A stretch of 64,000 nucleotides of DNA from Bacteroidota bacterium (GTDB lineage Bacteria; Bacteroidota; Bacteroidia; Bacteroidales; GCA-2748055): NCBI GenBank assembly GCA_002748055.1, contig PDRI01000095.1, positions 3,081 to 67,080 on the forward strand. The letters run 5' to 3'. Below, one piece after another: positions 14,773 through 58,049 of this stretch. Made by a program: the position numbers and the translations under genes. Positions within the stretch are counted from its first letter, which is position 1. Each line of letters starts with the position of its first letter. Under the pieces are notes generated by a model that was given only the letters and a program-made list of their open reading frames with translations, was not told where the DNA came from and did not search any database.

Positions 14773-14798
14773 AAACAAGCATTTTTAATACACTGATA

Positions 14799-39742: not shown

Positions 39743-39753
39743 GACTCCTTAGC

Positions 39754-41223: not shown

Positions 41224-43428
41224 TTAATTTCCAGATAGTTGCAGAATTAGTCTGCCGGTTTTCAATATTTTGGTGCATCCCTTTTCGGATAGCCTGTAAA
41301 AGTACATTCCATTTCTGAGGCTGCCGGCCCTTAGATCAATCGACGAGGAAGCCCCGGAGAGTTCCCTTTGCAGGATCACTCGTCCATTCATGTCGATCAA
41401 TTCAAAACTGACAGAACGACCCGGATCTTGGGGCAACTCCACACGTATCAAATCACGCACCGGATTGGGGTAGACCCTCAATGCTTCTGCTTCAAACCGA
41501 TTGCCTGCCGATGTAGATTCAAACACGCGAAGGTTGAAGGACTGGAAGCTGGTGTCAATTCCATCACTTACCCCAAGGGTTACCAGTGTTTGTCCGAGAT
41601 CTGCTTTGGTCGGGGTGCCAATCAGCACCTGTGAAGCGGGGTTGAAATCGAGCCAGTCCGGAATGCTGTAATCGAAATAGACCAGCGGATCGTTTTCATT
41701 GTCGCTGGCTGTTATTCCGTAGCTATAGGTATTCCCTACCTCTGCCGAGTCCTTGGGCACCGATCCGATTTCCGGCGGATAGTTGTAATAAACAACAGCA
41801 AGTTGGAAGGCCTGGGTGGTAGTAGCAATGCCGTCGGAGACCGTAAGCACAATGCTCTCGACCCCGGCCTGATTTCTGGCAGGTGTTCCGCTGACCAGAC
41901 CGGTGGAGGGATGAATCGTCATCCAGCCAGGCTTCTGGTTGGCCCCGTATTGCATCACATCCTCCGGGTCCTGGTCGGAAACAACCAACTGGTAACTATA
42001 GGTGTGCCCCGTCTTAACACTCAGGGGGGGAGATGAGAGGATGATGGGTGGATAGTTCACAACATCCACGCTGATTACCAGGTTATAGACATTCGATTCC
42101 CGCCCATTGGCAATAGCCTTTACCGGAACCTGCAGTTCACCATTAAAACTCAGATCGGGTATAATAGTCTGCCCCTGAACAGTATAGTTCGATCCGTTTC
42201 CGACTATCAGGACCATTCCGGCAGGAGCCTTCTCGTTCTCGACCAGTATGAGGTCAGCTGGTGTAATCGTATGTGTCGCCCCTTCTGCAATCGAAATGTT
42301 TTGCTGACCAATAATCTCGGGAATCCAGTTTACCGTAAAATCCACCAGGCAGGATGAAGACTTCCGGAGAATCTCCAGAACCCTTCCATCATCCGTGGCT
42401 ACAAACTCAATGGTCTCCATTCCGCTCCATTGCTCATTGCGCGGAACAACCGTAGCCACATGGCTCACCGGATCGATGCTCACTGAAAAATGCTCGGGGG
42501 AAGCAGGGGATACTGACCAATCAATGTTGGCAGCAGGTGTTTCCGGATCGGATACATAGGCATCAAGGGAAATGGTCGAAAAAGCCTCTCCCCGATCCGC
42601 ATCCTGGTTCGCAATCTGACTAAGCGTCGGCGTGCTGTTATAATTGTCAATCTCCTCAAACCATAAATCGGCCATCTTGTCGTAGCCGTTCTGGTTGGGA
42701 TGCAGCTCATCCGTCATATCATTAGTATAATCAATGCCTGCCGCACACTCCATATCGACCAGCTCAAGATGGTCGCCCATTGCGATTCTGCTCTGCACCA
42801 GCGATGTCAGATTGTTGTTAAAAGCAACCACACCGGACCGGGTATTGCAAGCATAGCCCTTTTCACTAATAACCTTGGAAACAAAGACCAGCACCGGATT
42901 TCCACTCGACTGCTCATATGTATCTACGGCATCCAGAATAGCTTCCACATGATTCACCCCGGTCTGCCCCTGCTGAATATCATTCGTACCAATATGCAAA
43001 AGAATGATATCGGCCTGGTTCGATGCCGTATTCAGATAGGGGCCCGGGCTGACTACTCCGGTGTGCGAAGAAGTTCCCGTTTCCATCACAGCGGCGAGCT
43101 CCCAGCTGTGAATTCCGGCAAAACCTCCATGATAGGGATCTGACATTACACTTTGTCCACTGCGTTCGCTCCCCACGAAATCGGGATTGTACCCGGCATC
43201 TGCCAACAGGTTATAAAGGTGGTGGCGATAGCCTATTGCACTGGCATCTGCCAGGGGCTGACAGGATCCTATCGCGCCATTCGTGCACCAAACCCCCTTG
43301 GTAATTGAATTTCCAAGTGGCAGAACCTTTAACTGGGCCCGGCTATCAACTGTTGTAAAAGCCAGGAAAAAGACCCAAAGTACAAGGAAAAAAGAAAAGG
43401 CATTTATCGAACGGGGCGATTTCTTCAT
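41224..43428 (-). CDS. Secreted SGNH/GDSL hydrolase fused to Ig-like and dystroglycan-type cadherin-like repeats and a T9SS C-terminal sorting domain.
   Basis: 734 aa with a signal peptide. SGNH blocks: VLPLGNSITKG, LLHIGTNDI, DELHPNQNGYDKMA. Cadherin-like repeats: PGWMTIHPSTGLVSGTPARNQAGVESIVLTVSDG and IPDWLDFNPASQVLIGTPTKADLG. Tail: RVYPNPVRDLIRVEL...GMYFYRL. Confidence 0.85.
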   Translation of the reverse strand: MKKSPRSINAFSFFLVLWVFFLAFTTVDSRAQLKVLPLGNSITKGVWCTNGAIGSCQPLADASAIGYRHHLYNLLADAGYNPDFVGSERSGQSVMSDPYHGGFAGIHSWELAAVMETGTSSHTGVVSPGPYLNTASNQADIILLHIGTNDIQQGQTGVNHVEAILDAVDTYEQSSGNPVLVFVSKVISEKGYACNTRSGVVAFNNNLTSLVQSRIAMGDHLELVDMECAAGIDYTNDMTDELHPNQNGYDKMADLWFEEIDNYNSTPTLSQIANQDADRGEAFSTISLDAYVSDPETPAANIDWSVSPASPEHFSVSIDPVSHVATVVPRNEQWSGMETIEFVATDDGRVLEILRKSSSCLVDFTVNWIPEIIGQQNISIAEGATHTITPADLILVENEKAPAGMVLIVGNGSNYTVQGQTIIPDLSFNGELQVPVKAIANGRESNVYNLVISVDVVNYPPIILSSPPLSVKTGHTYSYQLVVSDQDPEDVMQYGANQKPGWMTIHPSTGLVSGTPARNQAGVESIVLTVSDGIATTTQAFQLAVVYYNYPPEIGSVPKDSAEVGNTYSYGITASDNENDPLVYFDYSIPDWLDFNPASQVLIGTPTKADLGQTLVTLGVSDGIDTSFQSFNLRVFESTSAGNRFEAEALRVYPNPVRDLIRVELPQDPGRSVSFELIDMNGRVILQRELSGASSSIDLRAGSLRNGMYFYRLSEKGCTKILKTGRLILQLSGN

Positions 43429-43460
43429 CTGGGGATAATTATCTGGTCTTTGACGGATAT

Positions 43461-43495
43461 AAAATAGGGTGCCAATCGTTCCGACACCCTATTTT
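43461..43495 (-). terminator. Hairpin terminator or attenuator between two co-oriented T9SS cargo genes.
   Basis: AAAATAGGGTG-n13-CACCCTATTTT is an 11-bp perfect stem. On the minus strand it is followed by TTTTAT. Confidence 0.55.
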
Positions 43496-43517
43496 TCTTT
43501 CATACTTTTCAGCCTCC

Positions 43518-45917
43518 TTATTCAATGATCAGTTTACGCGTTGCATACTGTCCGTTTTCATGAACCCGCAGGAAGTAAACCCCGGATTGCAGATCGGAAA
43601 CATCAAGGCGTATCCTGCCCTCACCCGGATTAAGGGACTTCTGGAAGACAAGTTTACCGGCAATATCTGAAAGCTCGACCCTTTCCGGATTTCCGGTGAA
43701 CTCGGCAAAGATGAAGTCCTTCGCCGGGTTTGGATAAACACGGCTGAGCACAGACTCACCCTTTTCAATTCCATTTGGCCAGTTATGGACTGTAAGAATA
43801 AACTGGTGGTTTACAGAAATCTGCCCATCACTAAGGGTAATCATCACCGTATGCACTCCCACATCGTCCAGTCCGGGGGTACCGCTCAATACCTTGGATC
43901 CCATATCGAAAGTCAACCAGGACGGAATAACTGCCGGAATGTAGGTAATGGGGTCATTCTGGTGATCAACCGCAGTGAGCAGATAGGTATACAGGCTGCC
44001 GCGCATAGCACTGTCGACCGGAGTTGAAAGCACTTCCGGAGCCGTATTGACTGCATTAACCGTGATGGAAAAGTCCTGAAGGGTTTCTACATATCCATCC
44101 GAGACATAAAGTGAAACCGGATTCTGTCCTGCATTTGCTGCTGCAGGTGTACCACTCAGGGTTTGGGTTTCCGGATCAAAGGTCAGCCAGCTGGGCAGCA
44201 CCTTGGCACCATAAGTCAGGACATCGCCATCCTGATCATAGCCAGCCATCACATAGGTGTATTCGCTGTAGTTATCGATCGTAGTAGCCGGGGTTGAGGT
44301 AACCTGCGGAGGATGATTATCGGAGGTTACCGTAATTGTAAATTCATGTATTACAGACAACTGACCATCAGAAATCGTGATGCTCACCAGATGGTCCCCA
44401 ACGTCTTCCCGGGCAGGCTGGCCACTCAGGGTATGGGAAACGGGGTCGAAACTCAACCAGGCCGGAATCGTTGTTGCCTCATAACTCAGGGGATCCTGAT
44501 CCGGATCGGTCGCCAACACCGTATAAACATAGATACTCCCTTCCAGAATAGAGGTAATCGGGTTAGAGCTCACGACAGGGGCGTCATTCACATTGATCAC
44601 CTGAAGTGTGAAATCCTGATAGACTGTCGTAATGCCATCGCTGGCACTCAGCCTTATCGCATGGTTTCCGACATCGCTGTCCTGAGGAGTACCGCTCAGC
44701 ACACCCGTAGAAGCATTAAAGCTCAGAAAATCGGGAATATTCTCATCATTGAGGGTAAGGGGATCGTTTTTGTAGTCACCGGCCTCAAAGGTGTAAGAAT
44801 ACAAATTCTCCTCGGAAACGGTGTCGATGGGTACCGACTTAATAATGGGGAAGTAGTCCTGGGGCTTGCAGTGCATGCGACCATTCAAGCCATCCTGATA
44901 GGCCTCGTTCACTTCAGCGTTGGTCATCGCCTTCCCGTAAACGAAGATATCGTCCATGGCGCCATTCAGGGGATAGAGGTTAGAGGGGTGAGCCGACCAG
45001 TAGCCAATGTCCAGCTGATCGTCCCCGTCTCCTTCAAAACCTGCTGAACCATAATTGAAGCTTTGAGTTGTCTTAGCTCCATTCAGGTACAGGGCAATTA
45101 CCTTGCCGATCCCGTCATAAGTCACAACCAAATGGTTCCACTGGTTATTAATGACAGAGGAATTGCTCCACAATGTGGTGTAATTAGCGGCGGGAACATT
45201 TTTTGGCTTGATCTGCCAGAACGCCTTGTTACCATAAGTGGGTGCAATTCCCGTCAGCCAGAAAAACGTATTATCAGCAACAGTACCGCGGGCCATAAAG
45301 ACCTGGTTGTTGGGGTCACCGAAATTCTCGTAATTGCCCTTGGAATAGAACCAAAGTGAAATCGAAAAGCCTTCATTTGCAGCAAAGTCGTACTGGCCGT
45401 TGTCATTCACACTCATAAAATAGGAATTGGTCCGGGTATCAGGTGTAAAGACCTTTCCACCAGCAACCATGGCTGTGGTATCCTTCAGGCTGGTGGTAGT
45501 CTGCCCGTCATACCCCCCTTTAAAATCTGTTAAATCGCCGTCCAACTGCCAGTAGGAAATAAGGTCGTTATCACAAACAATCTGACCGGCAAGGTAGATG
45601 TAAAACGAGCGAACCGACTCTCCGATCGCATTGCGGGCCTTCACCGTAACGATACCGCCCTGGCTACTGGCGTTGGGAAACCAGCTGATCACTCCTGATG
45701 TAGCGTCGATAGACATGCCCTGAGGGGCATTCACAAGTGAATAAATCTCTGGCGGATCCGCATTCTCGGCATCCACGTCATAGGTAAACCACTGTCCAAG
45801 AATGGCCGTCTGATCGGCTATCGGGCCAATATAGGGTGCCTCAGCAGCAAAAGTAGTGCTGAGGGCAGCAAACAGCAGCAACACTGCCATTAGGTTTGTA
45901 AGGTATTTCTTTCTCAT
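43518..45917 (-). CDS. Secreted adhesin-like protein. Order: signal peptide, one Ig-like repeat, LamG (Laminin_G_3-like) domain, four dystroglycan-type cadherin-like repeats, T9SS C-terminal sorting domain.
   Basis: 799 aa. LamG-like region: FSISLWFYS...WNHLVVTYDG...LYLNG...MDDIFVYGKAMT. Repeats: IPDFLSFNASTGVLSGTPQDSDVGNH, IPAWLSFDPVSHTLSGQPAREDVGDH, LPSWLTFDPETQTLSGTPAAANAG, IPSWLTFDMGSKVLSGTPGLDDVG. Tail: RVYPNPAKDFIFAEF...GVYFLRVHENG. Confidence 0.85.
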   Translation of the reverse strand: MRKKYLTNLMAVLLLFAALSTTFAAEAPYIGPIADQTAILGQWFTYDVDAENADPPEIYSLVNAPQGMSIDATSGVISWFPNASSQGGIVTVKARNAIGESVRSFYIYLAGQIVCDNDLISYWQLDGDLTDFKGGYDGQTTTSLKDTTAMVAGGKVFTPDTRTNSYFMSVNDNGQYDFAANEGFSISLWFYSKGNYENFGDPNNQVFMARGTVADNTFFWLTGIAPTYGNKAFWQIKPKNVPAANYTTLWSNSSVINNQWNHLVVTYDGIGKVIALYLNGAKTTQSFNYGSAGFEGDGDDQLDIGYWSAHPSNLYPLNGAMDDIFVYGKAMTNAEVNEAYQDGLNGRMHCKPQDYFPIIKSVPIDTVSEENLYSYTFEAGDYKNDPLTLNDENIPDFLSFNASTGVLSGTPQDSDVGNHAIRLSASDGITTVYQDFTLQVINVNDAPVVSSNPITSILEGSIYVYTVLATDPDQDPLSYEATTIPAWLSFDPVSHTLSGQPAREDVGDHLVSITISDGQLSVIHEFTITVTSDNHPPQVTSTPATTIDNYSEYTYVMAGYDQDGDVLTYGAKVLPSWLTFDPETQTLSGTPAAANAGQNPVSLYVSDGYVETLQDFSITVNAVNTAPEVLSTPVDSAMRGSLYTYLLTAVDHQNDPITYIPAVIPSWLTFDMGSKVLSGTPGLDDVGVHTVMITLSDGQISVNHQFILTVHNWPNGIEKGESVLSRVYPNPAKDFIFAEFTGNPERVELSDIAGKLVFQKSLNPGEGRIRLDVSDLQSGVYFLRVHENGQYATRKLIIE

Positions 45918-46213: not shown

Positions 46214-48637
46214 CTAGGACGGTTTCTTTTTGGGCTTGTTTAATGCCGGAATTCTGTTGAACAGTCCCTTCCTCTTTTGTTGCGTATAGTACTTTCCATG
46301 TGCCCCTTTCTTTGGAATGTCTCCATTGATGAGCAAATGCAGGTTCTTAATGTCCTTGGCCTCAATATCGTCGAGGGTCTGCAACAGCATTCTTTTTTTC
46401 ACAATGCCCAGACGCGATACATAAATGTTGATGTCGGAGTAGCGCATCAGCACAAACGAGTCGGTCAACAGCCCATAAGGTGGTGTATCTATGATGATGT
46501 AGTCGTACTTTTTACGCAGTTCTTCAAACAAAATCCTGGTCTGATCCCCGGAAATCAACTCAATGGGATTGGGAGGAATCTGCCCTGCAAGCATAATGTC
46601 CAGATTGGGCACCCCCGATGAGATGGTAATCTCTTCCATGGAAGCCTTGTTGATCAGATAGGAGCTAACACCCACCAAACCTCTAATACCAAGGGTATTG
46701 TAAATGTCGCTTGGGCGTCTAAGGTCAAATTCCACCAGGATGGTTTTATTGTTGGTGACCGCCAGAGAACTCGCCAGATTCAGGGCCGAAAAAGACTTCC
46801 CCTCTCCTTCCATGGTTGAGGTAACCAGAATCACCTGGTTCGACTTCCCCATCAAATAGTAAATAATATTGCTTCGAAGCGAATGGAAAGCCTCAGCAGC
46901 AATGGAATTAGGCTGGTCCCTGATGACATTGATGGTGCCCCTGGCATGCTGCGGAATACTGCCCACCTGGTTGAGGCTCGTATAGCGCCGGAGCTCCTCC
47001 TTATTGGCAACACGATTGGTAAACATCTTCCGGATCAGAACGAAGGTGATGGGGATGAGTAAGCCAAAAAGAAAGGCCCCGATCAGCACCAGTACTTTCT
47101 TTGGCGCTGCAATTCCGGCATACTGCGGAGGTTCGACCAGCTCACAATCGGAAAGCGTAGAGGCCTTGATGATTTGCGCCTGAATACGTTGCTCCAACAA
47201 GGACATATAGACCCCTTCACTCAGGTTAAACTTCCGCTCTATCCCCAGCAACTGCCGCTGGGTATAGGGCAGGCTTTTGTACTCCCTGTCCAGTTGGCCG
47301 ATCCGGCTGTTAAGCTCCCTGAGCTCGGCATTTGCCGTATTCAGGCTGTACGAGATATTCTCCATAATCAGCCGCTCCAGATTGGCGATGGTAATATTCA
47401 GGGTCTTCAGCCTCGGGCTTCTCAACTGCTTATTATTGATCAGCTGCTGCCTCTCGGTGGCCATAGAGGTTAGTTCCTCAATCAATGCAGTAAGCTGGGG
47501 ATCGTTTATACCCGCAGCTGAAGGGGCAAGCATGCCTGTCGATTCATTGGATGCAAAATAGTCCTGCATTTGCTGCAGGTAATTACGTCTGCGTTCGATG
47601 TCGTCACGCTCCAATTCCGATTCCTGCAACTGGTTATAAACATTCCCTGCCTTCTCATCGATATTCATTACACTGGAGCTGCGCCTGATGTTTTGCAATT
47701 CCTGTTCCGAACTGCCCAGGGATTTGGAAATATCGGCCAACTGGAAATCGAGATGCTCTATCGTCTTCTCTGCCAGATGATTCTTTTTCTCAAGATTGTT
47801 CTCGATATACTTCTCCACTAAATGGTTCAGAAAATCAATTCCCTTTTGAAGGTTTCCGGAACGCATAGACATATCCACCATTGTCGCATCAACGGAAGAG
47901 GCTTCAACCTTCAGGGCCTGCTTAAACTGCCCCGTCAGCGCAGCCTTCGAATTAAATCGGAAAAAGAGATCCTTGCCCTGGTAAGCATCTGCATTGTAAT
48001 TTGAATTCAGAACGAGCTTGAATGAGGCATATTCATTCTCTACCACATCGCCGAATTTATACTCTCCCCCAAGTTGAAATGAAGTGGAAGGAATCACATA
48101 CTCATCACTCTCGAAATTGACTATACTCACCTCATTTCCATTCGCGGCTATCGAGTAACGCTCATCATCCAGTATCTTCACATAGAATAAAACATCCACA
48201 ACCTGCAGGTGCTTCTTATCCGGAAAAACCAGAAAAGGGGATTCGGTATAAAGCTCTTTCATACTGAATTCCATCTCTTTCGGAATCCTGTCTTCCTGGA
48301 GATAATAAGATACCTGCACATCCATTTCCTCTACGACCGACCGAATCAGGGGAGTGGAACCCATCAGGTAGATTTCGTTTTGCAGGTTCTTGTCCTGTTC
48401 AATCAGTTCATTCACCCTCATCATATCCTCGGATCCGCCTCCATAGGCATTGGAACGCTCCATTTTCAGGACAACCGAGGCGGCCACATTGTATTCCCTG
48501 GCGGCAAACTTCACATAGAACATCCCGATCCCCAGGGTCAGCCCCATGGAGATAACCACCACATACCAGAACTTGAACAGATCCCGAATAAACTCGATCA
48601 GATAGCTCAGGACATTCTCATTGATACTATTCGTCAT
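46214..48637 (-). CDS. wzc: Polysaccharide co-polymerase / tyrosine autokinase (Wzc/GumC-like, PCP-2a).
   Basis: 807 aa. It has an N-terminal TM segment, a long coiled-coil periplasmic region and a second TM segment. Walker A: LVTSTMEGEGKSFSALNLA. Walker B-like: YIIIDTPP. Confidence 0.85.
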   Translation of the reverse strand: MTNSINENVLSYLIEFIRDLFKFWYVVVISMGLTLGIGMFYVKFAAREYNVAASVVLKMERSNAYGGGSEDMMRVNELIEQDKNLQNEIYLMGSTPLIRSVVEEMDVQVSYYLQEDRIPKEMEFSMKELYTESPFLVFPDKKHLQVVDVLFYVKILDDERYSIAANGNEVSIVNFESDEYVIPSTSFQLGGEYKFGDVVENEYASFKLVLNSNYNADAYQGKDLFFRFNSKAALTGQFKQALKVEASSVDATMVDMSMRSGNLQKGIDFLNHLVEKYIENNLEKKNHLAEKTIEHLDFQLADISKSLGSSEQELQNIRRSSSVMNIDEKAGNVYNQLQESELERDDIERRRNYLQQMQDYFASNESTGMLAPSAAGINDPQLTALIEELTSMATERQQLINNKQLRSPRLKTLNITIANLERLIMENISYSLNTANAELRELNSRIGQLDREYKSLPYTQRQLLGIERKFNLSEGVYMSLLEQRIQAQIIKASTLSDCELVEPPQYAGIAAPKKVLVLIGAFLFGLLIPITFVLIRKMFTNRVANKEELRRYTSLNQVGSIPQHARGTINVIRDQPNSIAAEAFHSLRSNIIYYLMGKSNQVILVTSTMEGEGKSFSALNLASSLAVTNNKTILVEFDLRRPSDIYNTLGIRGLVGVSSYLINKASMEEITISSGVPNLDIMLAGQIPPNPIELISGDQTRILFEELRKKYDYIIIDTPPYGLLTDSFVLMRYSDINIYVSRLGIVKKRMLLQTLDDIEAKDIKNLHLLINGDIPKKGAHGKYYTQQKRKGLFNRIPALNKPKKKPS

Positions 48638-48645
48638 TGTTCTTT

Positions 48646-49422
48646 CTACCTTACGTAATTAATCATGAAAGTCATTACCACTATCGAGAGTGAAGCGATG
48701 GACAGGAGCAGGTCATACGGGAAGACATCCAGGCCCCATTTCTTCGAATTCAGTGGTTTAACATAGATGATGTCATTCGATTTAACCATGTACAACTCGG
48801 AGGTCAGAAGATCGTCCCGGGTCAGATCTATCTCGTATTTAGACCTGTACTCACCCTCTTCCCTGACGATAAGCACATGGTTTCTATCGCCGAAAACGGC
48901 AATATCTCCCGCATAACCAATGGCCTGCAGAATATTTACACTTTTGTAGTTGAAAACATAGACCCCAGGGCGATTTACCTCACCCAAAATCGTCACTTTG
49001 TTATTTACAAAACGAATAAAGACCGATGGGTTCAGAAGGTACTGTGACAATTCCGCCTCAATCAAATCCGATGCTTCGAGCAGGGTAAGCCCGGAAACCT
49101 TGGTACGGTTGATATAGGGAAGCTTAATGAAACCACCATCATCCACGGTATGGCTCAATAAAGAGGGATCGTGAACATTCTGATTCGCCTGCTGGCTAAA
49201 ATTGGTCTGTGTTTCATCATCGCTCGTCACCCGGATATAAATCTCATCACCCTGGCGGATCTTATTGTCCATATTCTGGTCGATGAAGTACATATTGTCT
49301 TCCTGCTGAGCAAGCATTTCCTTTGTTTCTTGCACGTACATTACCTTCCTATTCGGAACGCAGGCTGCCAGCAACAGCAGTGCCAGCAAACTGAGAATAA
49401 CAGGCCCCTTGTTTCTTTGCAT
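48646..49422 (-). CDS. wza: Polysaccharide export outer-membrane protein (Wza-like, Poly_export plus SLBB).
   Basis: 258 aa. Lipoprotein-type signal LLLLAACVP. Motifs: IRQGDEIYIRV and VTILGEVNRPGVY. It lies 8 bp upstream of wzc. Confidence 0.8.
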   Translation of the reverse strand: MQRNKGPVILSLLALLLLAACVPNRKVMYVQETKEMLAQQEDNMYFIDQNMDNKIRQGDEIYIRVTSDDETQTNFSQQANQNVHDPSLLSHTVDDGGFIKLPYINRTKVSGLTLLEASDLIEAELSQYLLNPSVFIRFVNNKVTILGEVNRPGVYVFNYKSVNILQAIGYAGDIAVFGDRNHVLIVREEGEYRSKYEIDLTRDDLLTSELYMVKSNDIIYVKPLNSKKWGLDVFPYDLLLSIASLSIVVMTFMINYVR

Positions 49423-49533: not shown

Positions 49534-50961
49534 TCAATGCCCCCCGGCTATAAAAAAGGTCTTTACCGTCTTTATAAACAAACCGATGTCCTTCCCGATG
49601 TTCCAGTTGTCGATATAGTGCATGTCCAGCATCATCCACTCTTCGAAGGAAACATCATGCCGGTTCGGAACAATTTGCCAGGAACAGGTAATCCCGGGCT
49701 TCACCGACAGCCTTCGGAGTTGCCAACGCTCGTATTGCTTCACTTCAGACTCCAGCGGAGGCCGCGGGCCAATCAAAGACATATCCCCTTTTACGACATT
49801 CAAGAGCTGGGGAAGCTCATCAAGACCTGTTTTCCGGAGAAACTTACCTATGCCCGTAATCCGGGGATCATCCTTCATTTTAAAAACAGGCCCGTCCGCT
49901 TCATTCCTGGCCTTTAGCTTCTTCAACTGGGCTTCGGCATCCACCACCATTGTCCTGAACTTATAGAGCTTAAACTTCCTGCCACGCAGGCCAATTCTTT
50001 CCTGCATAAAGAAAACCGGCCCCTTGGATGTGAATTTAATCATGATGGCAATCAGCAGGAAGAAGGGAGAAAGAAGCACCAGGGCAAGCATGGAAAAATA
50101 CACATCCCCCATGGATTTCAGAACCAGGGAAAGATTGTTGGAAGGGGCATCAATGATGGACAGGTCATTGGTTTTGTTCAGGGTTTTAAGCTGGAATTCA
50201 GTGGGATCAAGTGGTGAAACTGAAGACTGAAGGCGGAAAACTACACCAATCTCGTTACAGGCATCCACAATCTCCTTAATGAATTCAATGTCTACGTCCC
50301 TCCGACAGTACAGGACCTCATCAATAACCGTATTGTCTAGCTCCTTTTTCAGGGACGCGTCCGGGGGGAGAATCGTAATGTAGGACCCATATTTGGCCCT
50401 GATCAACTTGGAATCGGTCAGTATGGAAACAATATTAAACCCCCACTCCTTTTGCTTCATCAGGTTCTCGATCGTACCATCGGAAAAAGCATCGGCGATG
50501 AGCAGCACATTGTGAAAGCTTTTGCCGCTCGACCGGTAACTCTTCAGAACCTTAAAAACGAACATCTTGAAAATAAGGAGCAGCACATATAAGACCCCGG
50601 AATAAACCGCTACCAGCATCACCGGGATAGAGGTCAGTCTGAAAACGACCTTAAACAACAATAAAAGGATGAAAATCAGAAAAATCCCACGGCCAAACTG
50701 GAAAGCCAGTGTCAGATAGCGCTGGGTTCTGGGTACCCTGGCCATGCCCGTAATACGGGAAAGCACAAACCAGGACATCAGAATAAAAATAAAAAATACC
50801 ACAGCCTGGAAATCCTTCAAAACCATATCGACCACGTAGAATTGTGTGATCCAGATGGCAACGGGAAACGCAAGGCTGGCAAGAAGCATTTCAATCACAT
50901 CAATGATGAAGTGCCCCTTCTCCTTCTTTGGCTCGGTTATGCCTTTGTGCGTTTTTGACAT
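49534..50961 (-). CDS. Polyprenyl-phosphate sugar phosphotransferase (WbaP/bacterial sugar transferase family), the initiating enzyme.
   Basis: 475 aa with N-terminal TM helices. C-terminus: FMQERIGLRGRKFKLYKFRTMVVDAE...DPRITGIGKFLRKTGLDELPQLLNVVKGDMSLIGPRPP. Confidence 0.9.
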   Translation of the reverse strand: MSKTHKGITEPKKEKGHFIIDVIEMLLASLAFPVAIWITQFYVVDMVLKDFQAVVFFIFILMSWFVLSRITGMARVPRTQRYLTLAFQFGRGIFLIFILLLLFKVVFRLTSIPVMLVAVYSGVLYVLLLIFKMFVFKVLKSYRSSGKSFHNVLLIADAFSDGTIENLMKQKEWGFNIVSILTDSKLIRAKYGSYITILPPDASLKKELDNTVIDEVLYCRRDVDIEFIKEIVDACNEIGVVFRLQSSVSPLDPTEFQLKTLNKTNDLSIIDAPSNNLSLVLKSMGDVYFSMLALVLLSPFFLLIAIMIKFTSKGPVFFMQERIGLRGRKFKLYKFRTMVVDAEAQLKKLKARNEADGPVFKMKDDPRITGIGKFLRKTGLDELPQLLNVVKGDMSLIGPRPPLESEVKQYERWQLRRLSVKPGITCSWQIVPNRHDVSFEEWMMLDMHYIDNWNIGKDIGLFIKTVKTFFIAGGH

Positions 50962-51110
50962 TTAATCGATTAGATTATGGCTGTTTCGCCGAAGCTAAAT
51001 TGCGAAAATTCTACAGTTATATACGCTAATCTGCTGCGAACGTTGTGCAAAATTTGACAAATTCTGAAATTGTCAGCCTGAATCGCAGTAAAATAGTGAC
51101 AAGCCGGAGC

Positions 51111-51139
51111 AATTCCGGAATTTTTGATTTTGTACAAAA
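51111..51139. promoter_or_regulatory. Two adjacent perfect 12-bp palindromes, candidate operators in a divergent promoter region.
   Basis: AATTCCGGAATT (51111-51122) and TTTTGTACAAAA (51128-51139). They lie ~150 bp from both the WbaP-like ATG (50961, minus) and the SiaC-like ATG (51282, plus). Confidence 0.3.
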
Positions 51140-51281
51140 CGAAACTTAGCCCAAGTTATTCCGGCTATTGACCATTGAAAAACGCTCGTTCGTCAATTCC
51201 TTAAAAAAAACTCCAAAAGGGCATAAACAATCTTTGCTACCTTTACTTTCTCGAACAACGCACCCTTTTGAAGCAGTATTT

Positions 51282-51650
51282 ATGGAAGACCTACTGATTA
51301 AAGCGACCGACAAAGCAATGGGCGTCGACCTGTCCTATGGGATTCTGAACTTCACCGGTCGATCTATTCTCACCGATCCAAAAGTGTTTTTTGAACCGGT
51401 AAATGCCTGGGTTACGAAGTATTTGAAAAAACCGGCAGAAGAAACAGTGGTCAATGTAAAACTGGAGTACATTGACACGGCCTCCACCCAAGCCCTCTAT
51501 CAAATGCTGAGGCAGCTGAATGGCCTGAGAAAGAAAGGGCTTGTTCTTATGGTAAACTGGCACATCGAAGATGACGACCCCGAAATGAAAGAGTTGGGCG
51601 AGATGATTGAACAGCGCCTGGGGCTGGAGTTTCAATTCATTTCTTTCTGA
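51282..51650 (+). CDS. DUF1987 / SiaC-family small regulatory protein (122 aa).
   Basis: The track ORF starts with TTG at 51168. The ATG at 51282 gives MEDLLIKATDKAMGVDLSYGILNFTGRSILTDPKVFFEPVNAWVTKYL...VNVKLEYIDTAST...WHIEDDDPEMKELGEMIE. This layout matches DUF1987 as I recall it. Confidence 0.7.
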   Translation: MEDLLIKATDKAMGVDLSYGILNFTGRSILTDPKVFFEPVNAWVTKYLKKPAEETVVNVKLEYIDTASTQALYQMLRQLNGLRKKGLVLMVNWHIEDDDPEMKELGEMIEQRLGLEFQFISF

Positions 51651-51679
51651 GGGGGTGAAAAAAAACGTATTTTGGACCC

Positions 51680-52489
51680 ATGGCAGATGACCGCCCTAAA
51701 CTGAGCCGTAGCGAACTTGAGGAAGCCTGTCTGCGGCAAAACATCATTATCCAACGCAAAGATCCCCTGACCGGGTCAAGCATCAACCTTCCCAACATTG
51801 AGAAAGTAAACAAGATGATCCGGGAGTTCGACATACTGGTGGATGGAGCCTCCCGCGGAAAGTCGGTTAATGAGATTAGTAAGATTGAACGTTTCTTATA
51901 CGAGCACGAAGATGATCCCGAGAAGCAGAGCGAATACCTGGCTTCCTGCTACAGTAAGGCATCGATGTACATCGAAGCACAGCGGAGTCTGCTGAATGAC
52001 AAGCATTCGGAGAACTGGAAATACTTGTTTGTCAGCTACTTTAAGTTAGAAGACATCTATTACTACTTCAACAAAGGGATCAGTGCCTCCGTTTTTTTCA
52101 AGGATTTCACCCTGTACAAGGACATGGTAGAGCTGACCTACCACGTCAAGCTTATGAATTATCTGCGCAGCCAGGTCCAGCTTCAAATCCTTCCCGAAGC
52201 CGAGAAGGATCTTCCTTCACCCATTGAGGATGTTAACCTGAAACTGGCTATCATCCACCTGCTGGGCATAAGTGATCTTTTAACAAAGCGCAGTACTCAG
52301 CAGGGGCTGGCCGGCCTTGCCCGCTTTTTTACGGTCATTTTTGGAGAGGATCCGGCTTCATGGCGCAGTCTGCTGAAAAAGCTGGAACAAATTGGAAGCG
52401 GAAGTGACAAGGACATCCTGAATGAGCTAAACCTGTGTAAAGCCAAAGAAATCATCTCCGTATTCGGAATTGATTTGGAAAAAGACTAA
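51680..52489 (+). CDS. Hypothetical protein (269 aa), apparently helical, with no recognisable motif.
   Basis: Clean ORF with 29-bp and 39-bp gaps to the flanking SiaC-like genes. No signal peptide or TM segment is evident. Confidence 0.6.
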   Translation: MADDRPKLSRSELEEACLRQNIIIQRKDPLTGSSINLPNIEKVNKMIREFDILVDGASRGKSVNEISKIERFLYEHEDDPEKQSEYLASCYSKASMYIEAQRSLLNDKHSENWKYLFVSYFKLEDIYYYFNKGISASVFFKDFTLYKDMVELTYHVKLMNYLRSQVQLQILPEAEKDLPSPIEDVNLKLAIIHLLGISDLLTKRSTQQGLAGLARFFTVIFGEDPASWRSLLKKLEQIGSGSDKDILNELNLCKAKEIISVFGIDLEKD

Positions 52490-52528
52490 TTGCTATATTT
52501 GTAATTAATTACGAGAAATAGAATAACC

Positions 52529-52900
52529 ATGGAAAAAATTAGTATTGAACCCACAAAGAAATCACTGGAAGTTGAATGCGCACCTGGTTACTTTAAACTC
52601 TCTGGGAACTCAATACTGTCCGATCCACGGAAATTCTTCAAGCCCATCGTCGAATGGGTCGAAGTCTATGTTCAGCAACCAGAGGAGTTAACCACGATCG
52701 ACCTGAAGCTTGAGTATGTCGATACAGCATCCGTCCAAAGCGTATTCGACATTATGCGTATGTTCAAGCCCCTCCAGGAACAGGACAAAGAGGTTGCGGT
52801 CAACTTCTATTTCGAATTCGATGATCCGGAATTGCTCGAACTGGGTGAGATCATGGAAGGCAGACTTGGTATCAAATTCAATTTCATCGAATACCAGTAA
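52529..52900 (+). CDS. Second DUF1987 / SiaC-family small regulatory protein (123 aa).
   Basis: MEKISIEPTKKSLEVECAPGYFKLSGNSILSDPRKFFKPIVEWVEVYV...IDLKLEYVDTASV...FYFEFDDPELLELGEIME. It is collinear with 51282..51650. Confidence 0.7.
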   Translation: MEKISIEPTKKSLEVECAPGYFKLSGNSILSDPRKFFKPIVEWVEVYVQQPEELTTIDLKLEYVDTASVQSVFDIMRMFKPLQEQDKEVAVNFYFEFDDPELLELGEIMEGRLGIKFNFIEYQ

Positions 52901-52982: not shown

Positions 52983-53144
52983 ATGAACCCAAACTTCTCC
53001 CACAGGTCCTTTTCCGGGACAGCAGCCACTTTTGTCGCAGGAAGCCTGACGGCGCCCCCCCTTTCAAGAGCGGCTCTTGATCAGGGACGGAAAATAAATG
53101 CAGTTCCGGCAGGTAGTGTTGTTCATCGGACTCACCGACCTTGA
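52983..53144 (+). pseudogene. 53-codon ORF resembling a decayed TAT-signal N-terminus. It may be a gene remnant or may be spurious.
   Basis: MNPNFSHRSFSGTAATFVAGSLTAPPLSRAAL... has a hydrophobic A/G-rich stretch after HRSF, like a degraded SRRxFLK signal. It is below the track's length cutoff. Confidence 0.2.
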
Positions 53145-53212: not shown

Positions 53213-54181
53213 ATGATTGATCGCAGACGTTTTATTCAGGCAGGAGCAATGACCGTTGCAGGTGCGGCACTGGCCGGATGTACCACCAGTGGAAACCAGG
53301 AAGCTCCGGAAGCCAGTAAACCAAAAAATATCCGTCATAATCCCATTGGGGTTTCGACCTATTCTTTCTGGCAGTTTAACCGGCCAAAAAATGACCCCCC
53401 CATTGAAGAAATCATCGATAAGGTTGCAGCCATGGGCTTCGACGGAGTTGAACTGCTTCTGGTACAGATGGCCGCCGAAGATACACCCTACCTGAATAGT
53501 TTGAAGCGAAGAGCTTTTCATGCAGGTCTCGACCTGATGGGCTTTTCCACTCACCAGGGTTACGTCAGACCCGATAAAGCCTACCGTGACGAAAACATCG
53601 CACTGACCATCCACCAGATTGAGCTGGCCTATCAACTTGGCATCCCCACCATGCGGATTAATACCGGCCGCTGGGGCACTTCGGAATCCTTCGATCATTT
53701 GATGGAGAACAGGGGGATTGAACCTACCATTGAAGGCTACACCGATGAGGATGGCTTCAAGTGGGTAATCGATGCCATGGAGCAGATCGTACCTGTAGCC
53801 GAGAAATGTGGGGTTACACTGGGCCTTGAAAACCACTGGGGACTGGGACGCACAGCCGAAGGTGTCAAGCGCATTGTTGACGCTATTGACTCACCGTGGC
53901 TGAGCGTAACACTCGACACAGGAAACTTCCTGGAAGAGCCCTATGATGAGCTTAAGAAACTGGCTTCAATGGCCAGTCTCATGCAGGCGAAGACCTATTA
54001 TGGAGGTGGAAAATGGTACACCCTTGATCTGGACTATCCGCGCATTGGTGCCATTATGAGAGATGCAGGTTACAAGGGCTATATCTCCCTCGAAATGGAA
54101 GGTAAGGCCGATCCGATGGAAGCCGTACCCCAGAGTCTGGAAGTCCTGCGCGACGCCTTCTGGTATGAAGTCGGGGCATAG
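53213..54181 (+). CDS. Xylose isomerase-like TIM-barrel protein (sugar phosphate isomerase/epimerase family) with a TAT/lipoprotein signal.
   Basis: MIDRRRFIQAGAMTVAGAALAGC (twin-arginine plus Cys). Motifs: GFDGVELL, LGLENHWG, DTGNF, ISLEMEG. Confidence 0.85.
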   Translation: MIDRRRFIQAGAMTVAGAALAGCTTSGNQEAPEASKPKNIRHNPIGVSTYSFWQFNRPKNDPPIEEIIDKVAAMGFDGVELLLVQMAAEDTPYLNSLKRRAFHAGLDLMGFSTHQGYVRPDKAYRDENIALTIHQIELAYQLGIPTMRINTGRWGTSESFDHLMENRGIEPTIEGYTDEDGFKWVIDAMEQIVPVAEKCGVTLGLENHWGLGRTAEGVKRIVDAIDSPWLSVTLDTGNFLEEPYDELKKLASMASLMQAKTYYGGGKWYTLDLDYPRIGAIMRDAGYKGYISLEMEGKADPMEAVPQSLEVLRDAFWYEVGA

Positions 54182-54236
54182 ACCGGCTCGATGAAAATCC
54201 AATGCCCGGAAAGCTAAGCCGGGCAGGCTAAAAAAG

Positions 54237-54267
54237 GCTCCCGGCTTACCCCCGGGAGCTTTTTTTT
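54237..54267 (+). terminator. Rho-independent terminator.
   Basis: GCTCCCGG-cttaccc-CCGGGAGC followed by TTTTTTTT, and preceded by an A-tract. Confidence 0.8.
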
Positions 54268-54369
54268 GTTCCACTGCTCCTTTCAAATGCCCGATCACGT
54301 GCAAAAAAGTGCAAATGCCAACGAAATGTTAATCCCGGACACAATCAATGTTTTATAACATAATTTCTA

Positions 54370-54377
54370 TACTTTTG
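54370..54377 (+). promoter_or_regulatory. Candidate -7 promoter box (TAnnTTTG).
   Basis: TACTTTTG lies 20 bp upstream of the ATG at 54397. Confidence 0.4.
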
Positions 54378-54396
54378 TGGTAAAATTATTCAGCTT

Positions 54397-56340
54397 ATGA
54401 CAGAAAATCTGTTCACCATTCTTAAAGAAAAGAAAATCAAGCTCTCCGATCGCATCACCGATCTGCTTGAAAACTGCCAGGGCTTCAGCGTAGCCGATAC
54501 CACCCTGGAACTGGCCGACGCCTCCACAGGCGGAAAAGACAAGATGTCCTTTGATGTCGTTTATGACATCCCTGGCAAAGGGCCTTATACCGAGGCTGTA
54601 GTGCACAGGGTTCAGAACGGTATTTCGGCAAATTATACGGAACCCTATATGCGCCGCCGCGATCCCGAAACCATGGTCATCGCCGATGACAAACCCTCCG
54701 ATAAAACCAGATTCAAGGACAAATATGGCTACGATTTTGCCAGCCTGCAGGAAGAAACCCTGGCCTGGATGAAGGAGAGGAAACTGTCGGTTTTCTTTTA
54801 CTATGCGGGCCGGATGGGAATTGGTTCCCTGGGAATTGCAATCGTTCCGGATAACGCAGCTTTCTTCGCCATGGGATTGTCCATGCTACAGGAGATGGTT
54901 CCGGTGGCCAAGCTAAAAAAACACAGCGAGATCGCTTCTTCCATTCTTGTTGCACCTGTCTTCAGGCACACCCATTTCGAAGGGAAACAGGTCGTGGTGC
55001 ACAACCGGACCGACGAGATGCACGAATTGTATGCCTACAACCTCTATCCGGGGCCAAGTGCCAAAAAGGGACTCTATGGCGTGTTGCTTACCAAAGGAGA
55101 AAGAGAAGGTTGGGTAACAGCCCACTGTTCGGCCGTACAGTCGATCAGCCCCTACGACAATATATCCACCTTCATGCATGAAGGAGCCAGCGGAGGCGGA
55201 AAAAGTGAAATGCACCAGCATATTCTGAGGGAACCCGATGGAAGGGTTCTTCTTGGGGAGAACCCCAAAACCGAAGTGCTGCGCTACATCACCATTCCCC
55301 GGTTTTGCTCATTCAATCCGGTTGCAGACGATATGGCTTTCTGCCACCCTTCACTCCAAAGAAACGATGGTAAACTCCGGATCATTGATGCCGAGAATTC
55401 ATGGTTTGTTCGCGTGGACAGCGTACATCGCTATGGCGATGACCCTTCACTCGAACGGGTTACCATTGATGCCCGGGACCCGCTCCTTTTTCTGAACATC
55501 GACACCACTCCGGGTTCAACCGCCCTGATCTGGAATCACATCGAAGATGAACCGGGCAGGCCCTGCCCCAACCCCCGCGTTGTACTCCCCCGTAATACAG
55601 TTGAGAATGTGGTGGATGGCCCTGTGTCGGTCGACATACGCAGCTTTGGACTTAGAACACCTCCCTGCTCCAGCGAAGATCCTAACTACGGCATACTGGG
55701 ACTCTTCCATATCCTTCCTCCGACCCTGGCCTGGTTGTGGCGGCTGGTTTCGCCCCGGGGACACAAGAACCCCAGTATCGTGGGCTCGGACAGTATGGAA
55801 AGTGAAGGAGTGGGCTCCTATTGGCCTTTTGCCTCGGGCCTGCAAATCGACCATGCCAACATGCTGCTTAAGCAAATCATAGAGAGCCCGAGAACCACCT
55901 ATACCTTAGTCCCTAACCAGTACATCGGGGTATGGAAGGTGGGCTTCAAACCCCAGCTTCTGATGAGGGAATACCTGACCCGGAGGGGGGTGGCCAAACT
56001 CAAAAAAGAACAATACCAGTCGGCCCGTTGTCCGTTGCTGGGCTATGAACTGAACTACCTCACGATCGAAGGATCCAAAATACCTTCGCGCTTCCTGAAA
56101 GTATACAAACAGGACGAGGTAGGTACTGAAGGCTATGATGCGGGGGCGGAGATTCTGACCAAGTTCTTCAAAGAAGAACTGCAGAAATACCTGAAAAAAG
56201 ACCTGCTGGCCACCGGTAAGCGCATCATTGATGCCTGTCTCTCGGATGCCACAGCAGAGGAGTACAACCAGATAGTCCCGATGAGCTATTCCTACTCCTT
56301 CCAGCACCTTTCGGACTACGAGGAGAGCAACAGCCATTAG
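54397..56340 (+). CDS. Uncharacterised 647-aa cytoplasmic protein with an HprK/PEPCK-like P-loop. It may belong to the family annotated DUF4914 in Bacteroidota.
   Basis: No signal peptide. Walker A-like HEGASGGGKSEM at 55183-55206 fits GxSGxGKSE. The family assignment is from memory only. Confidence 0.6.
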   Translation: MTENLFTILKEKKIKLSDRITDLLENCQGFSVADTTLELADASTGGKDKMSFDVVYDIPGKGPYTEAVVHRVQNGISANYTEPYMRRRDPETMVIADDKPSDKTRFKDKYGYDFASLQEETLAWMKERKLSVFFYYAGRMGIGSLGIAIVPDNAAFFAMGLSMLQEMVPVAKLKKHSEIASSILVAPVFRHTHFEGKQVVVHNRTDEMHELYAYNLYPGPSAKKGLYGVLLTKGEREGWVTAHCSAVQSISPYDNISTFMHEGASGGGKSEMHQHILREPDGRVLLGENPKTEVLRYITIPRFCSFNPVADDMAFCHPSLQRNDGKLRIIDAENSWFVRVDSVHRYGDDPSLERVTIDARDPLLFLNIDTTPGSTALIWNHIEDEPGRPCPNPRVVLPRNTVENVVDGPVSVDIRSFGLRTPPCSSEDPNYGILGLFHILPPTLAWLWRLVSPRGHKNPSIVGSDSMESEGVGSYWPFASGLQIDHANMLLKQIIESPRTTYTLVPNQYIGVWKVGFKPQLLMREYLTRRGVAKLKKEQYQSARCPLLGYELNYLTIEGSKIPSRFLKVYKQDEVGTEGYDAGAEILTKFFKEELQKYLKKDLLATGKRIIDACLSDATAEEYNQIVPMSYSYSFQHLSDYEESNSH

Positions 56341-56410
56341 GAGGGACATTGATAGCCTGTGAACAGAAAGATTCTTGTTAACTTCACATCCAACTAAAAC
56401 CACTTGTAAA

Positions 56411-57010
56411 ATGAGAAAAACATTGTTTCTTACGCTGGCTGTTGTATGCGGACTGCAGGGCATGGCCCAGGCACAAGGTAAAAAGCTGTTCAATGGCAAA
56501 AACCTGGATGGCTGGATCATCTACGGCACCGAAAAATGGTATGTAGAAGATGGACTCCTGATCTGTGAAAGCGGGCCCGACAAAGCTTACGGCTATCTGG
56601 GCACCAGTGAGACTTTCAAGGACTTCGAACTCACCCTGGAATTCAAACAGGGAGCAGATGGGAACTCAGGGGTCTTCTTCCGCTCATCCATCGAAGGCAC
56701 GAAGATTACCGGCTGGCAAGCCGAAGTGGCCCCTCCCGGCTCCAACACAGGCGGTATCTACGAGTCTTATGGAAGAGGCTGGCTTATCAAGCCGGATCCT
56801 GAGCTGGACAAGCACCTGAAATTTGGCGAGTGGAACAAAATGAAGATCCGGGTGGTTGGCGACAACGTAGAAACCTGGCTAAACGGTCAGAAAATGATCA
56901 GCCTGGAGGACGAGAAAATCGGTCAGGCTGAAGGCTGCATTGCGCTTCAGATCCACAGTGGAGGCGGCATCAGGGTGATGTGGCGGAACATAAAGATCAC
57001 GAGCCTGTAA
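56411..57010 (+). CDS. DUF1080 (3-keto-disaccharide hydrolase-like) secreted protein.
   Basis: The likely start is MRKTLFLTLAVVCGLQGMAQAQ at 56411. Motifs: LFNGKNLDGW, W.VEDGLL, NSGVFFRS, GWQAEV, EWNKMKIRVVGDNVETWLNGQK, IALQIHSGG. Confidence 0.85.
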   Translation: MRKTLFLTLAVVCGLQGMAQAQGKKLFNGKNLDGWIIYGTEKWYVEDGLLICESGPDKAYGYLGTSETFKDFELTLEFKQGADGNSGVFFRSSIEGTKITGWQAEVAPPGSNTGGIYESYGRGWLIKPDPELDKHLKFGEWNKMKIRVVGDNVETWLNGQKMISLEDEKIGQAEGCIALQIHSGGGIRVMWRNIKITSL

Positions 57011-57040
57011 ATTTTATAAAACTGTGGACCTGGGCTTCTC

Positions 57041-57059
57041 AGGCTGACAGCCTTTTTTG
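57041..57059 (+). terminator. Weak candidate terminator.
   Basis: AGGCT-gac-AGCCT is only a 5-bp stem, followed by TTTTTTG. Confidence 0.3.
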
Positions 57060-57101
57060 TATCTTGTCCACGACATTAAGCAACGCACGAAAATTTTTAT
57101 C

Positions 57102-58049
57102 ATGAAACAAGTACGCAATAGACGCGATTTTCTGAAGGTTTCCGCAGCCGGAAGCCTGGGTGTAATGGCCCTGGGCGCCATGGCATGTAAGAGTGGAACA
57201 GGAAAAGTTGCCGCAGGCCATGAGGCTGCTGCCGCTGTCGATTTGAAAAGCTTTGAAATTGGGCTTCAGCTCTACACCATCCGTGATGCCATTGCAGCAG
57301 ACCTTCCCGGTTCCCTGAAAAGGGTTTCTGAGTTGGGTTATAAGAATCTGGAGCTGGCAAACTATGCCGACGGAAAGTTCTATGGTTATGCCCCGGAAGA
57401 GTTCAAGGCAATGGTTGAGGATCTTGGCATGGCGATCATCAGTTCTCATACCAAGGTTGAAGCAGCGGGGATTACGCTTGACAATGCAAAATTCATGGCC
57501 GATGCGCATGCCAAATTGGGAGTTAAGTACTGTATTCAGCCCTGGGTAAACGAAGAAGAGCGGAATGTGGAGTCTTACAAACGGATGATCGCCGATTGGA
57601 ACAAGGTGGGTGAAATTATGAAAGAATTCGGCATCCAGTTCGGGTACCACAATCACAATTTTGAATTTGCAAATCTCGACGGCATTGTTCCCTATTATGA
57701 GCTTTTCCTGAAAGGACTTGATCCCGAGCTGGTTATCATGGAACTTGATCTTTACTGGGCCAGCAAAGCCGGCCAGGACCCGGTAGAGTTGTTCAGGAAC
57801 TATCCTGGTCGCTTCCATCTCTTCCACATGAAAGACATGACCACAAAGGGCGAACCCTACTATGACATTGTCAAGGATGACATCACCTCGGTTGGAGCCG
57901 GAGTAATCGACTTCAAGCGCATCCTCGCAGAGAGGGAAACGGCCGGCCTGAAGTACATGTTCGTTGAAGACGACAACCAGGGCAACGGGCACCCCTTTAA
58001 AGGCATCGAAACCAGTATTACGAATCTGACCTCAGATATCCTGGTTTAA
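57102..58049 (+). CDS. Second xylose isomerase-like TIM-barrel protein with a TAT/lipoprotein signal.
   Basis: The likely start is MKQVRNRRDFLKVSAAGSLGVMALGAMAC at 57102 (the track ORF starts at 57057). Motifs: GYKNLELA, FGYHNHNFEF, LFHMKD. Confidence 0.85.
   Translation: MKQVRNRRDFLKVSAAGSLGVMALGAMACKSGTGKVAAGHEAAAAVDLKSFEIGLQLYTIRDAIAADLPGSLKRVSELGYKNLELANYADGKFYGYAPEEFKAMVEDLGMAIISSHTKVEAAGITLDNAKFMADAHAKLGVKYCIQPWVNEEERNVESYKRMIADWNKVGEIMKEFGIQFGYHNHNFEFANLDGIVPYYELFLKGLDPELVIMELDLYWASKAGQDPVELFRNYPGRFHLFHMKDMTTKGEPYYDIVKDDITSVGAGVIDFKRILAERETAGLKYMFVEDDNQGNGHPFKGIETSITNLTSDILV

Follow-up and report, generated by a model that had tools for sequence, protein, structure and literature searches.

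Background

Proteins of the SiaC family (Pfam PF09345, formerly DUF1987) have been described from the SiaABCD system of Pseudomonas aeruginosa, in which SiaC is a phosphoprotein structurally related to STAS antagonists, SiaB a kinase, SiaA a PP2C phosphatase and SiaD a diguanylate cyclase (PMC7647112, PMC8457831). SiaB phosphorylates threonine 68 (T68) of SiaC, and SiaA removes the phosphate (PMC7647112). In the crystal structure of SiaC bound to SiaD, four molecules of SiaC clamp a pair of motifs on the helical stalk of dimeric SiaD, with contacts made through helix alpha2, which begins with T68, and helix alpha3, and phosphorylation of T68 blocks the binding; DUF1987 proteins have also been proposed to be modulators of adjacent proteins generally (PMC8457831). 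This report concerns a three-gene cassette, in which two SiaC-family genes (A and C) flank a gene for an orphan protein (B), in a stretch of 64,000 nucleotides (the window) from a metagenome-assembled genome (MAG) of a Bacteroidales bacterium of the Bacteroidota (assembly GCA_002748055.1, contig PDRI01000095.1, positions 3,081 to 67,080 of the forward strand).

SiaC/DUF1987 proteins are widespread, yet only the SiaABCD system of Pseudomonas, where the target is a diguanylate cyclase, has been worked out, and full-text literature searches on DUF1987, PF09345 and SiaC-like or SiaC-family proteins returned only Pseudomonas work. The STAS partner switches offer a wider comparison, with enzymes as targets in HptB-HsbR-HsbA/HsbD of P. 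aeruginosa and BgrSTUWV/BgrR of Sinorhizobium meliloti and sigma factors as targets in RsbV-RsbW-sigmaB and SpoIIAA-SpoIIAB-sigmaF. The cassette described here is probably an undescribed regulatory module, and it shows the SiaC family in a different arrangement, with fixed pairs or triples of paralogues around an orphan helical protein.

Two SiaC-family genes flank an orphan gene

The three genes lie on the forward strand and encode an A-type SiaC-family (STAS-like) protein of 122 aa (A, 51282..51650), the orphan protein of 269 aa (B, 51680..52489) and a C-type SiaC-family protein of 123 aa (C, 52529..52900), separated by intergenic gaps of 29 bp between A and B and 39 bp between B and C. Their conservation in many metagenomic lineages marks A, B and C as real genes rather than chance open reading frames (ORFs). 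The ATG at 51282 was favoured as the start of A over an upstream TTG at 51168 because the listed orthologues were almost all 122 aa long and covered 98-100% of the query.

A preliminary description made from the DNA letters had reported two SiaC/DUF1987 paralogues around a 269-aa protein with no recognisable domain; its coordinates and gaps proved exact, and database searches bore out both the family assignment and the orphan status of B. In a profile hidden Markov model scan A matched PF09345 at E 1.8e-26 (92.6 bits) and C at E 6.4e-24 (84.4 bits), against a gathering cut-off of 24.5 bits and with nearly the whole 120-position profile covered by each protein. Scores against the NCBIfam SiaC equivalog NF038265 were 48.8 bits for A and 60.7 bits for C and did not reach the cut-off of 150; A and C are therefore SiaC-family members and not SiaC orthologues. 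The two were 42% identical to each other and have in common the LEY(I/V)DTAS segment and an acidic DDPE..ELGE motif, a similarity already pointed out in the preliminary description.

C was aligned without gaps to P. aeruginosa SiaC (PDB 6KKO, 6KKP, 7E6G and 6K4F) at E 1e-7, the alignment spanning 96 residues (6KKO/6K4F). In this alignment T66 of C, a candidate phospho-site (codon 52724-52726, forward strand), paired with SiaC T68, which is the Thr of LLYLNTSSIK, and T66 of A (codon 51477-51479, forward strand) is a candidate phospho-site at the same position. The positions that form the hydrophobic pocket of SiaC (L61, L63, L66, I71, M74, W95, L107 and F111; PMC7647112) were all hydrophobic in C. 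Both proteins are predicted to adopt a STAS-like alpha/beta fold of six strands and three helices, in which alpha2 (DTASVQSVFDIM) and alpha3 (DDPELLELGEIMEGRL) corresponded to the most conserved stretches of A and C. All three cassette proteins were acidic, with isoelectric points (pI) of 4.9 for A, 5.45 for B and 4.4 for C.

Conservation of the cassette and of the phospho-site

Approximately 35 related loci were collected and their ORFs classified by phmmer. The B proteins of these loci fell into two full-length clades, clade 1 containing the window protein and clade 2 represented by P0121, a protein of 267 aa with 38% identity to the window B. Each locus for which the downstream flank of B was available had a C-type SiaC gene directly after B. 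An A-type gene immediately preceded B in the window, in 13 further loci of clade 1 and in almost every clade-2 locus, and the order A-B-C was kept in both clades. A second C-type copy was often present in clade-2 cassettes (L026, L029, L031, L038), while seven clade-1 lineages (L001, L004, L008, L011, L013, L017, L019) carried only B and C, with no A at the locus. The invariant core of the cassette was thus B with its downstream C-type gene.

The upstream copy always scored best against A and the downstream copies always best against C, and A and C are therefore old, position-specific paralogues. Orthologue identities were 85-93% for C, 74-84% for A and 59-69% for B, making C the most conserved member of the cassette. 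That a conserved SiaC-B-SiaC module is real can be regarded as nearly certain, and it is confined to a group of uncultured Bacteroidota.

In both clades the candidate phospho-site of the C-type proteins was Thr, with Ser in a single sequence. In the A-type proteins the site was Thr throughout clade 1, while among nine clade-2 lineages it was Ala in five and Ser in four, and A is therefore not generally a phospho-switch. All four of the Ala lineages with a complete downstream flank (L026, L029, L031, L038) carried two C-type genes, and every assessable lineage with Thr or Ser in A (L032, L037 and all clade-1 loci) carried one. This pairing of Ala in A with a doubled C may reflect a compensatory duplication or a single lineage event.

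Two suggestions made earlier are thereby narrowed. The three genes had been expected to be conserved together, which extends to the 38%-identical clade and does not extend to the seven lineages without A; a phospho-site had been proposed for both SiaC-like proteins, which agrees with T66 in A and C of the window and does not carry over to the five clade-2 lineages with Ala in A.

Protein B

B had no match in Pfam or NCBIfam at E of 1 or below, and none in PADLOC, PHROGs or PDB. Pfam searches with each domain alone and with distant relatives, up to E 10, gave nothing meaningful, and neither did a plasmid tblastn search or a PDB profile search with B. The best PDB match, the NatB subunit NAA25 at E 0.03, was taken as a chance match.

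In the AlphaFold2 model B was divided into two domains. The N-terminal domain (residues 1-167; 51680..52180, forward strand) was all-alpha with one small beta-hairpin and with long helices at residues 40-75, 80-100 and 144-169, and had a predicted local distance difference test (pLDDT) score of about 90 over residues 10-165. A disordered acidic linker (residues 168-179) joined it to a C-terminal five-helix bundle (residues 180-269), linker and bundle together being encoded by 52181..52489 (forward strand); modelled alone, the C-terminal domain had a pLDDT of 88.9 and a predicted template modelling score of 0.78. A Foldseek search of the full model against PDB returned nothing with E below 1, and across PDB and BFVD neither model had a significant match.

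Most of the invariant columns of B fell in the N-terminal domain, the most conserved part of the protein, and the C-terminal domain was the least conserved. The invariant residues of the N-terminal domain included a dense polar set (D28, N39, E41, K42, D51, D55, S58, R59, R71, D107, K108, S110, E111, N112, E124, D125), and its invariant basic residues were K42, K45, R59 and R71.

A word-indexed search with B returned 179 clusters. The best 120 of these were nearly all 262-270 aa long and 59-69% identical to B, a range that leaves out the window's own MAG protein (100%), and all were unnamed proteins from Bacteroidota/Bacteroidales MAGs or metagenomes. When 1.84 billion cluster representatives were searched exhaustively with a profile, only 19 matches resulted, comprising the main cluster, the second full-length clade, fragments and a few weak matches to the C-terminal third. 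Only the two full-length clades were thus found among the 1.84 billion representatives, all from uncultured Bacteroidota.

The distant homologues matched the C-terminal part of B only (E 1e-5 to 6e-4, library-wide). Two of these, P0133 and P0136, share with B the C-terminal helical domain of about 90 residues and a K(I/L)xxLHELG(I/L) motif (library-wide E 1.6e-5 and 1.9e-4). The P0136/P0133 genes (L034, 6001-6810; L035, 1741-2628; L036, 3431-4318) were located directly after a tyrosine integrase gene and were followed in L034 and L035 by an excisionase-like gene of the HTH_17 family, while L036 ended before a next gene could be identified. They represent an unannotated, recurrent mobile-element gene family in integrative elements of Bacteroidota.

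Association with wbaP and the divergent control region

Upstream of the cassette and divergent from A is a gene for a WbaP-like initiating sugar-phosphate transferase (49534..50961, reverse strand; Bac_transf at E 8e-66, with CoA_binding_3). Downstream of wbaP on the same strand follow genes for a Wza-like exporter (48646-49422; Poly_export and SLBB domains) and a Wzc-like co-polymerase with a bacterial tyrosine kinase domain (46214-48637; GNVR and AAA_31 domains). The divergent arrangement of the trio and WbaP-Wza-Wzc, noted at the outset, was upheld by the Pfam domains of the three neighbours, and wza and wzc were syntenic in the clade-1 three-gene loci.

Across both clades, wbaP was head-to-head with A in 17 of the 22 loci that had A and a readable upstream flank. 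These included 13 three-gene loci of clade 1 (the window among them), where wza-wzc usually followed, and four lineages of clade 2 (L026/27, L028, L037, L041). The downstream flank of the wbaP-linked clade-2 loci was unlike that of clade 1, for example with ADH_zinc_N in place of AP_endonuc_2. The association with wbaP is recurrent and not universal; the suggested adjacency to an exopolysaccharide (EPS) locus thus holds in two clades, with other neighbours elsewhere, as described below.

The intergenic region between wbaP and A (50962..51281) appears to be a shared divergent control region, and an alignment of the upstream regions of 17 loci revealed three non-coding blocks conserved in clade 1. 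Block 1 (51039-51061) contains TTTGACAAA and a palindrome centred on AACGTT, read as TAACGTTA in most loci; it was unique in the window, where 0.02 chance matches would be expected. Block 2 (TTCGTCAATTC) is at 51189-51199, and block 3 (ATAAACAATCTTTGCTA) at 51223-51239 resembles the Bacteroidota -7 box. Promoter and operator roles for these blocks are putative. A regulon search found no further convincing copies of the blocks in the window. There was no support for a leader or intergenic RNA element, as Rfam at gathering thresholds gave no RNA family anywhere in the window. In L014 an insertion of about 110 bp was present in the leader, about 110 bp upstream of the A start and after the conserved promoter-like block.

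Genes for an HATPase-type Ser/Thr kinase, a PP2C/SpoIIE phosphatase or a GGDEF protein were absent from the Pfam-scanned genes of the window (the ORFs judged to be genes, other than small ones and the giant frame at the left edge), and kinase, PP2C and GGDEF genes were likewise absent from the annotated flanks (up to 10 kb) of the related loci. The earlier remark that no such gene lies nearby therefore stands for the genes scanned.

Proposed mechanism and alternative explanations

In the reading that we favour, to which a probability of roughly one half can be given as a whole, the genes form a self-contained cytoplasmic signalling cassette in which A and C act on B. A and C would bind B directly through their alpha2/alpha3 faces (DTASVQ..., DDPELLELGE...), each paralogue at a site of its own on those long and conserved helices of the N-terminal domain that bear Lys and Arg, and the binding would set the oligomeric or active state of B. 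By analogy with SiaC and SiaD, such direct contact is probable. C would be the switchable partner, under an unlinked kinase of the RsbW/SiaB type and a PP2C phosphatase, and A would serve, in clade 2 at least, as a partner that is constitutive or competing; for phospho-control of C the chances appear evenly balanced.

B would in turn act on cell-surface polymer production, the likeliest output because the control region is shared with wbaP-wza-wzc in most loci, and an output on the EPS or surface locus is proposed tentatively from the wbaP adjacency and this shared region. The sequence homology of the C-terminal domain of B to proteins encoded between integrase and HTH_17 genes hints at a regulatory role. 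A broader version, which we regard as doubtful, is that B may found a new family of effectors under SiaC-type switch proteins, forming a partner switch independent of cyclic di-GMP (c-di-GMP) that would directly gate the onset of EPS synthesis and export (wbaP-wza-wzc), or surface functions linked to the type IX secretion system (T9SS), in uncultured sediment Bacteroidota. The paralogues would then dock at separate sites on B, C being phospho-switchable and A non-switchable in many lineages.

Several observations weigh against the favoured reading. As all three proteins are acidic, an electrostatic fit like that of SiaC and SiaD would depend solely on local basic residues of B, and B is unlike SiaD and unlike any solved fold. 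The kinase and phosphatase are hypothetical, and unlinked if they exist. The seven lineages with B and C only adjoin upstream rsmD and DUF3822 genes, away from wbaP, and some clade-2 cassettes face a PorV gene (L029/30, L038) or a metallophosphatase gene (L032). Shared ancestry and inherited synteny may also account for part of the wbaP adjacency.

The likeliest alternative, although we consider it rather unlikely, is that the cassette is a general cytoplasmic signalling module with an output unrelated to the polysaccharide genes and that its position beside wbaP is inherited gene order. The B-C pairs beside rsmD/DUF3822 and the clade-2 cassettes beside PorV, the metallophosphatase gene or genes for GH9 and GlcNAc 2-epimerase would fit this explanation, as would the downstream AP_endonuc_2 gene, whose synteny in clade 1 roughly equals that of wbaP. 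Inherited order accounts less readily for a head-to-head wbaP shared by two clades whose B proteins have only 38% identity and whose other flanks differ, or for the conserved blocks in the shared intergenic region, and PorV, the alternative neighbour, is likewise a cell-surface gene.

B could instead be a transcription regulator, its C-terminal domain contacting DNA or a DNA-bound factor at the palindrome block and A and C serving as anti-activators or co-activators. The confident five-helix bundle, the AACGTT-centred block in the divergent promoter region and the distant homologues encoded between tyrosine integrase and HTH_17 excisionase-like genes are consistent with this. Many of the Foldseek matches of this domain were likewise helix-turn-helix domains, but no fold or sequence match to a DNA-binding domain was significant (best Foldseek E 2.3, probability below 0.2), and the domain is acidic (pI 5.1, with a family mean of about 5.1) as well as being the least conserved part of the protein. 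A regulator of this kind is accordingly judged unlikely. Direct DNA binding by B was also considered separately and downgraded, since both domains are acidic (the N-terminal domain of the window protein has a pI of 5.97) and no DNA-binding fold was detectable, and it is not claimed here.

It is improbable that B is a new-fold enzyme, such as a kinase, phosphatase or other modifier acting on the SiaC-like proteins, although the lack of linked SiaA and SiaB genes would then be accounted for. In favour are the unusually dense invariant polar residues of the N-terminal domain and the absence of a kinase or phosphatase gene from all the annotated loci, whereas the predicted fold is all-alpha with no nucleotide-binding motif and no likeness to Bergerat-fold kinases or PP2C, and A often lacks a phospho-acceptor in clade 2. 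The segment DGASRGKS of B was rejected as a Walker A motif, as GASRGKS is one residue too short and the segment is predicted to be helical. Finally, despite the integrase/excisionase contexts of the C-terminal domain relatives, a mobile element or a defence or toxin-antitoxin-like module is a very improbable explanation, given the lack of PADLOC and PHROGs matches for A, B and C and of any plasmid match, the stable syntenic chromosomal location with no integrase and no atypical GC content, and the 85-93% identity of C across lineages.

Other genes of the window

Pfam scans of the ORFs judged to be genes indicated that positions 1 to approximately 51,000 of the window form one large cell-surface polysaccharide locus. 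Apart from wbaP-wza-wzc, its genes include several for GT2 and GT4 glycosyltransferases, one each for a WecG-type transferase, a UDP-GlcNAc 2-epimerase and a PL14 lyase, those of the rhamnose pathway, several for proteins that end in a C-terminal sorting domain of the T9SS, and an MBOAT and AlgX-like pair. The pair, an MBOAT acyltransferase and a weakly matching AlgX-like SGNH protein (27 bits, cut-off 26.5), is located at 38660-41196 on the reverse strand and resembles the alginate O-acetylation machinery AlgI/AlgX-AlgJ.

Four large secreted proteins with the T9SS domain Por_Secre_tail were interleaved in the locus at 9898-17273 (forward strand) and 41224-45917 (reverse strand). Two Por_Secre_tail proteins, those at 41224-45917, also have He_PIG and other adhesin-like or lectin-like domains, and the product of 41224-43428 (reverse strand) a GDSL esterase domain besides its Por_Secre_tail. 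A fifth secreted protein (28188-31514, reverse strand) combines a PL14 lyase with Fn3 and Laminin_G_3 domains, with no T9SS tail detected. Such interleaving suggests a functional tie between the EPS locus and T9SS cargo. At the left end of the window a frame of about 2,500 codons (1 to approximately 7455, reverse strand) stays open past the boundary; its start is probably a Met about 17 codons in, followed by a signal peptide. Visual inspection further pointed to a GDSL/SGNH-like region, numerous Fn3-like repeats and, at the C-terminus, an 'LYPNPA' motif of the kind typical for T9SS sorting domains.

On the 3' side of the cassette, genes at 53213-58049 (forward strand) encode an AP_endonuc_2 (xylose-isomerase-like) protein with a signal of the twin-arginine translocation (TAT) type, a DUF4914 protein (647 aa, E 5e-283), a hydrolase of the 3-keto-disaccharide type and another AP_endonuc_2 protein. 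In almost every clade-1 locus the first AP_endonuc_2 gene is syntenic with B-C. Between C and this gene, a gap of 312 bp holds an ORF of 53 codons (52983-53144, forward strand), which is what remains of a GFO_IDH_MocA oxidoreductase gene, namely its N-terminal part with a TAT-like signal. The intact gene (467 aa) is present in L001 between C and AP_endonuc_2, the remnant matching its first 50 residues with 46% identity (E 1e-11), and the window genome appears to have lost its body by deletion. In two related loci from MFD03804 bins genes were split into short frames, the Wzc gene in L020 (4400-6777) and the WbaP and B genes in L024 (8726-10791); these are probably assembly indel errors rather than real pseudogenes.

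Comparison with known systems

SiaABCD of P. aeruginosa is the closest known system, A and C being homologues of SiaC (E 1e-7 to 6KKO/6K4F). Both the hydrophobic pocket and the Thr that opens alpha2 are retained, and in the two systems alike SiaC-like genes adjoin the gene of a long-helix protein that could be clamped, near matrix genes. The differences are that no SiaA, SiaB or SiaD/GGDEF gene was found among the scanned genes of the window or in the annotated flanks of the related loci, that the partner is the orphan B, which has no similarity to SiaD, that two or three specialised SiaC paralogues occupy fixed positions here in place of one, and that the system is found in Bacteroidota, with no evident link to c-di-GMP. 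By the equivalog score and by the presence of SiaA, SiaB and SiaD alike, the locus did not qualify as a Sia module. Signalling by c-di-GMP is generally regarded as sparse in Bacteroidota.

The STAS partner switches are alike in that a small STAS-like protein has a Ser or Thr at the start of alpha2 that decides its partner, and the D-T-A-S motif of A and C resembles the D-S-S-G motif of SpoIIAA. Those systems encode a kinase or anti-sigma factor and a PP2C phosphatase beside the antagonist, whereas neither is linked here, and B, as the candidate target, belongs neither to the sigma factors nor to the cyclases. The integrative-element orphans P0133 and P0136 share the C-terminal helical domain of B and differ in having N-terminal regions unrelated to it, no SiaC neighbours and a mobile-element context. 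If A and C do interact with B, SiaC-type proteins would have in B a target of a second kind, which would also provide a handle on the regulation of capsule or matrix in uncultured Bacteroidota. What is new relative to these systems is a SiaC-type module with a new partner and with fixed roles for its paralogues.

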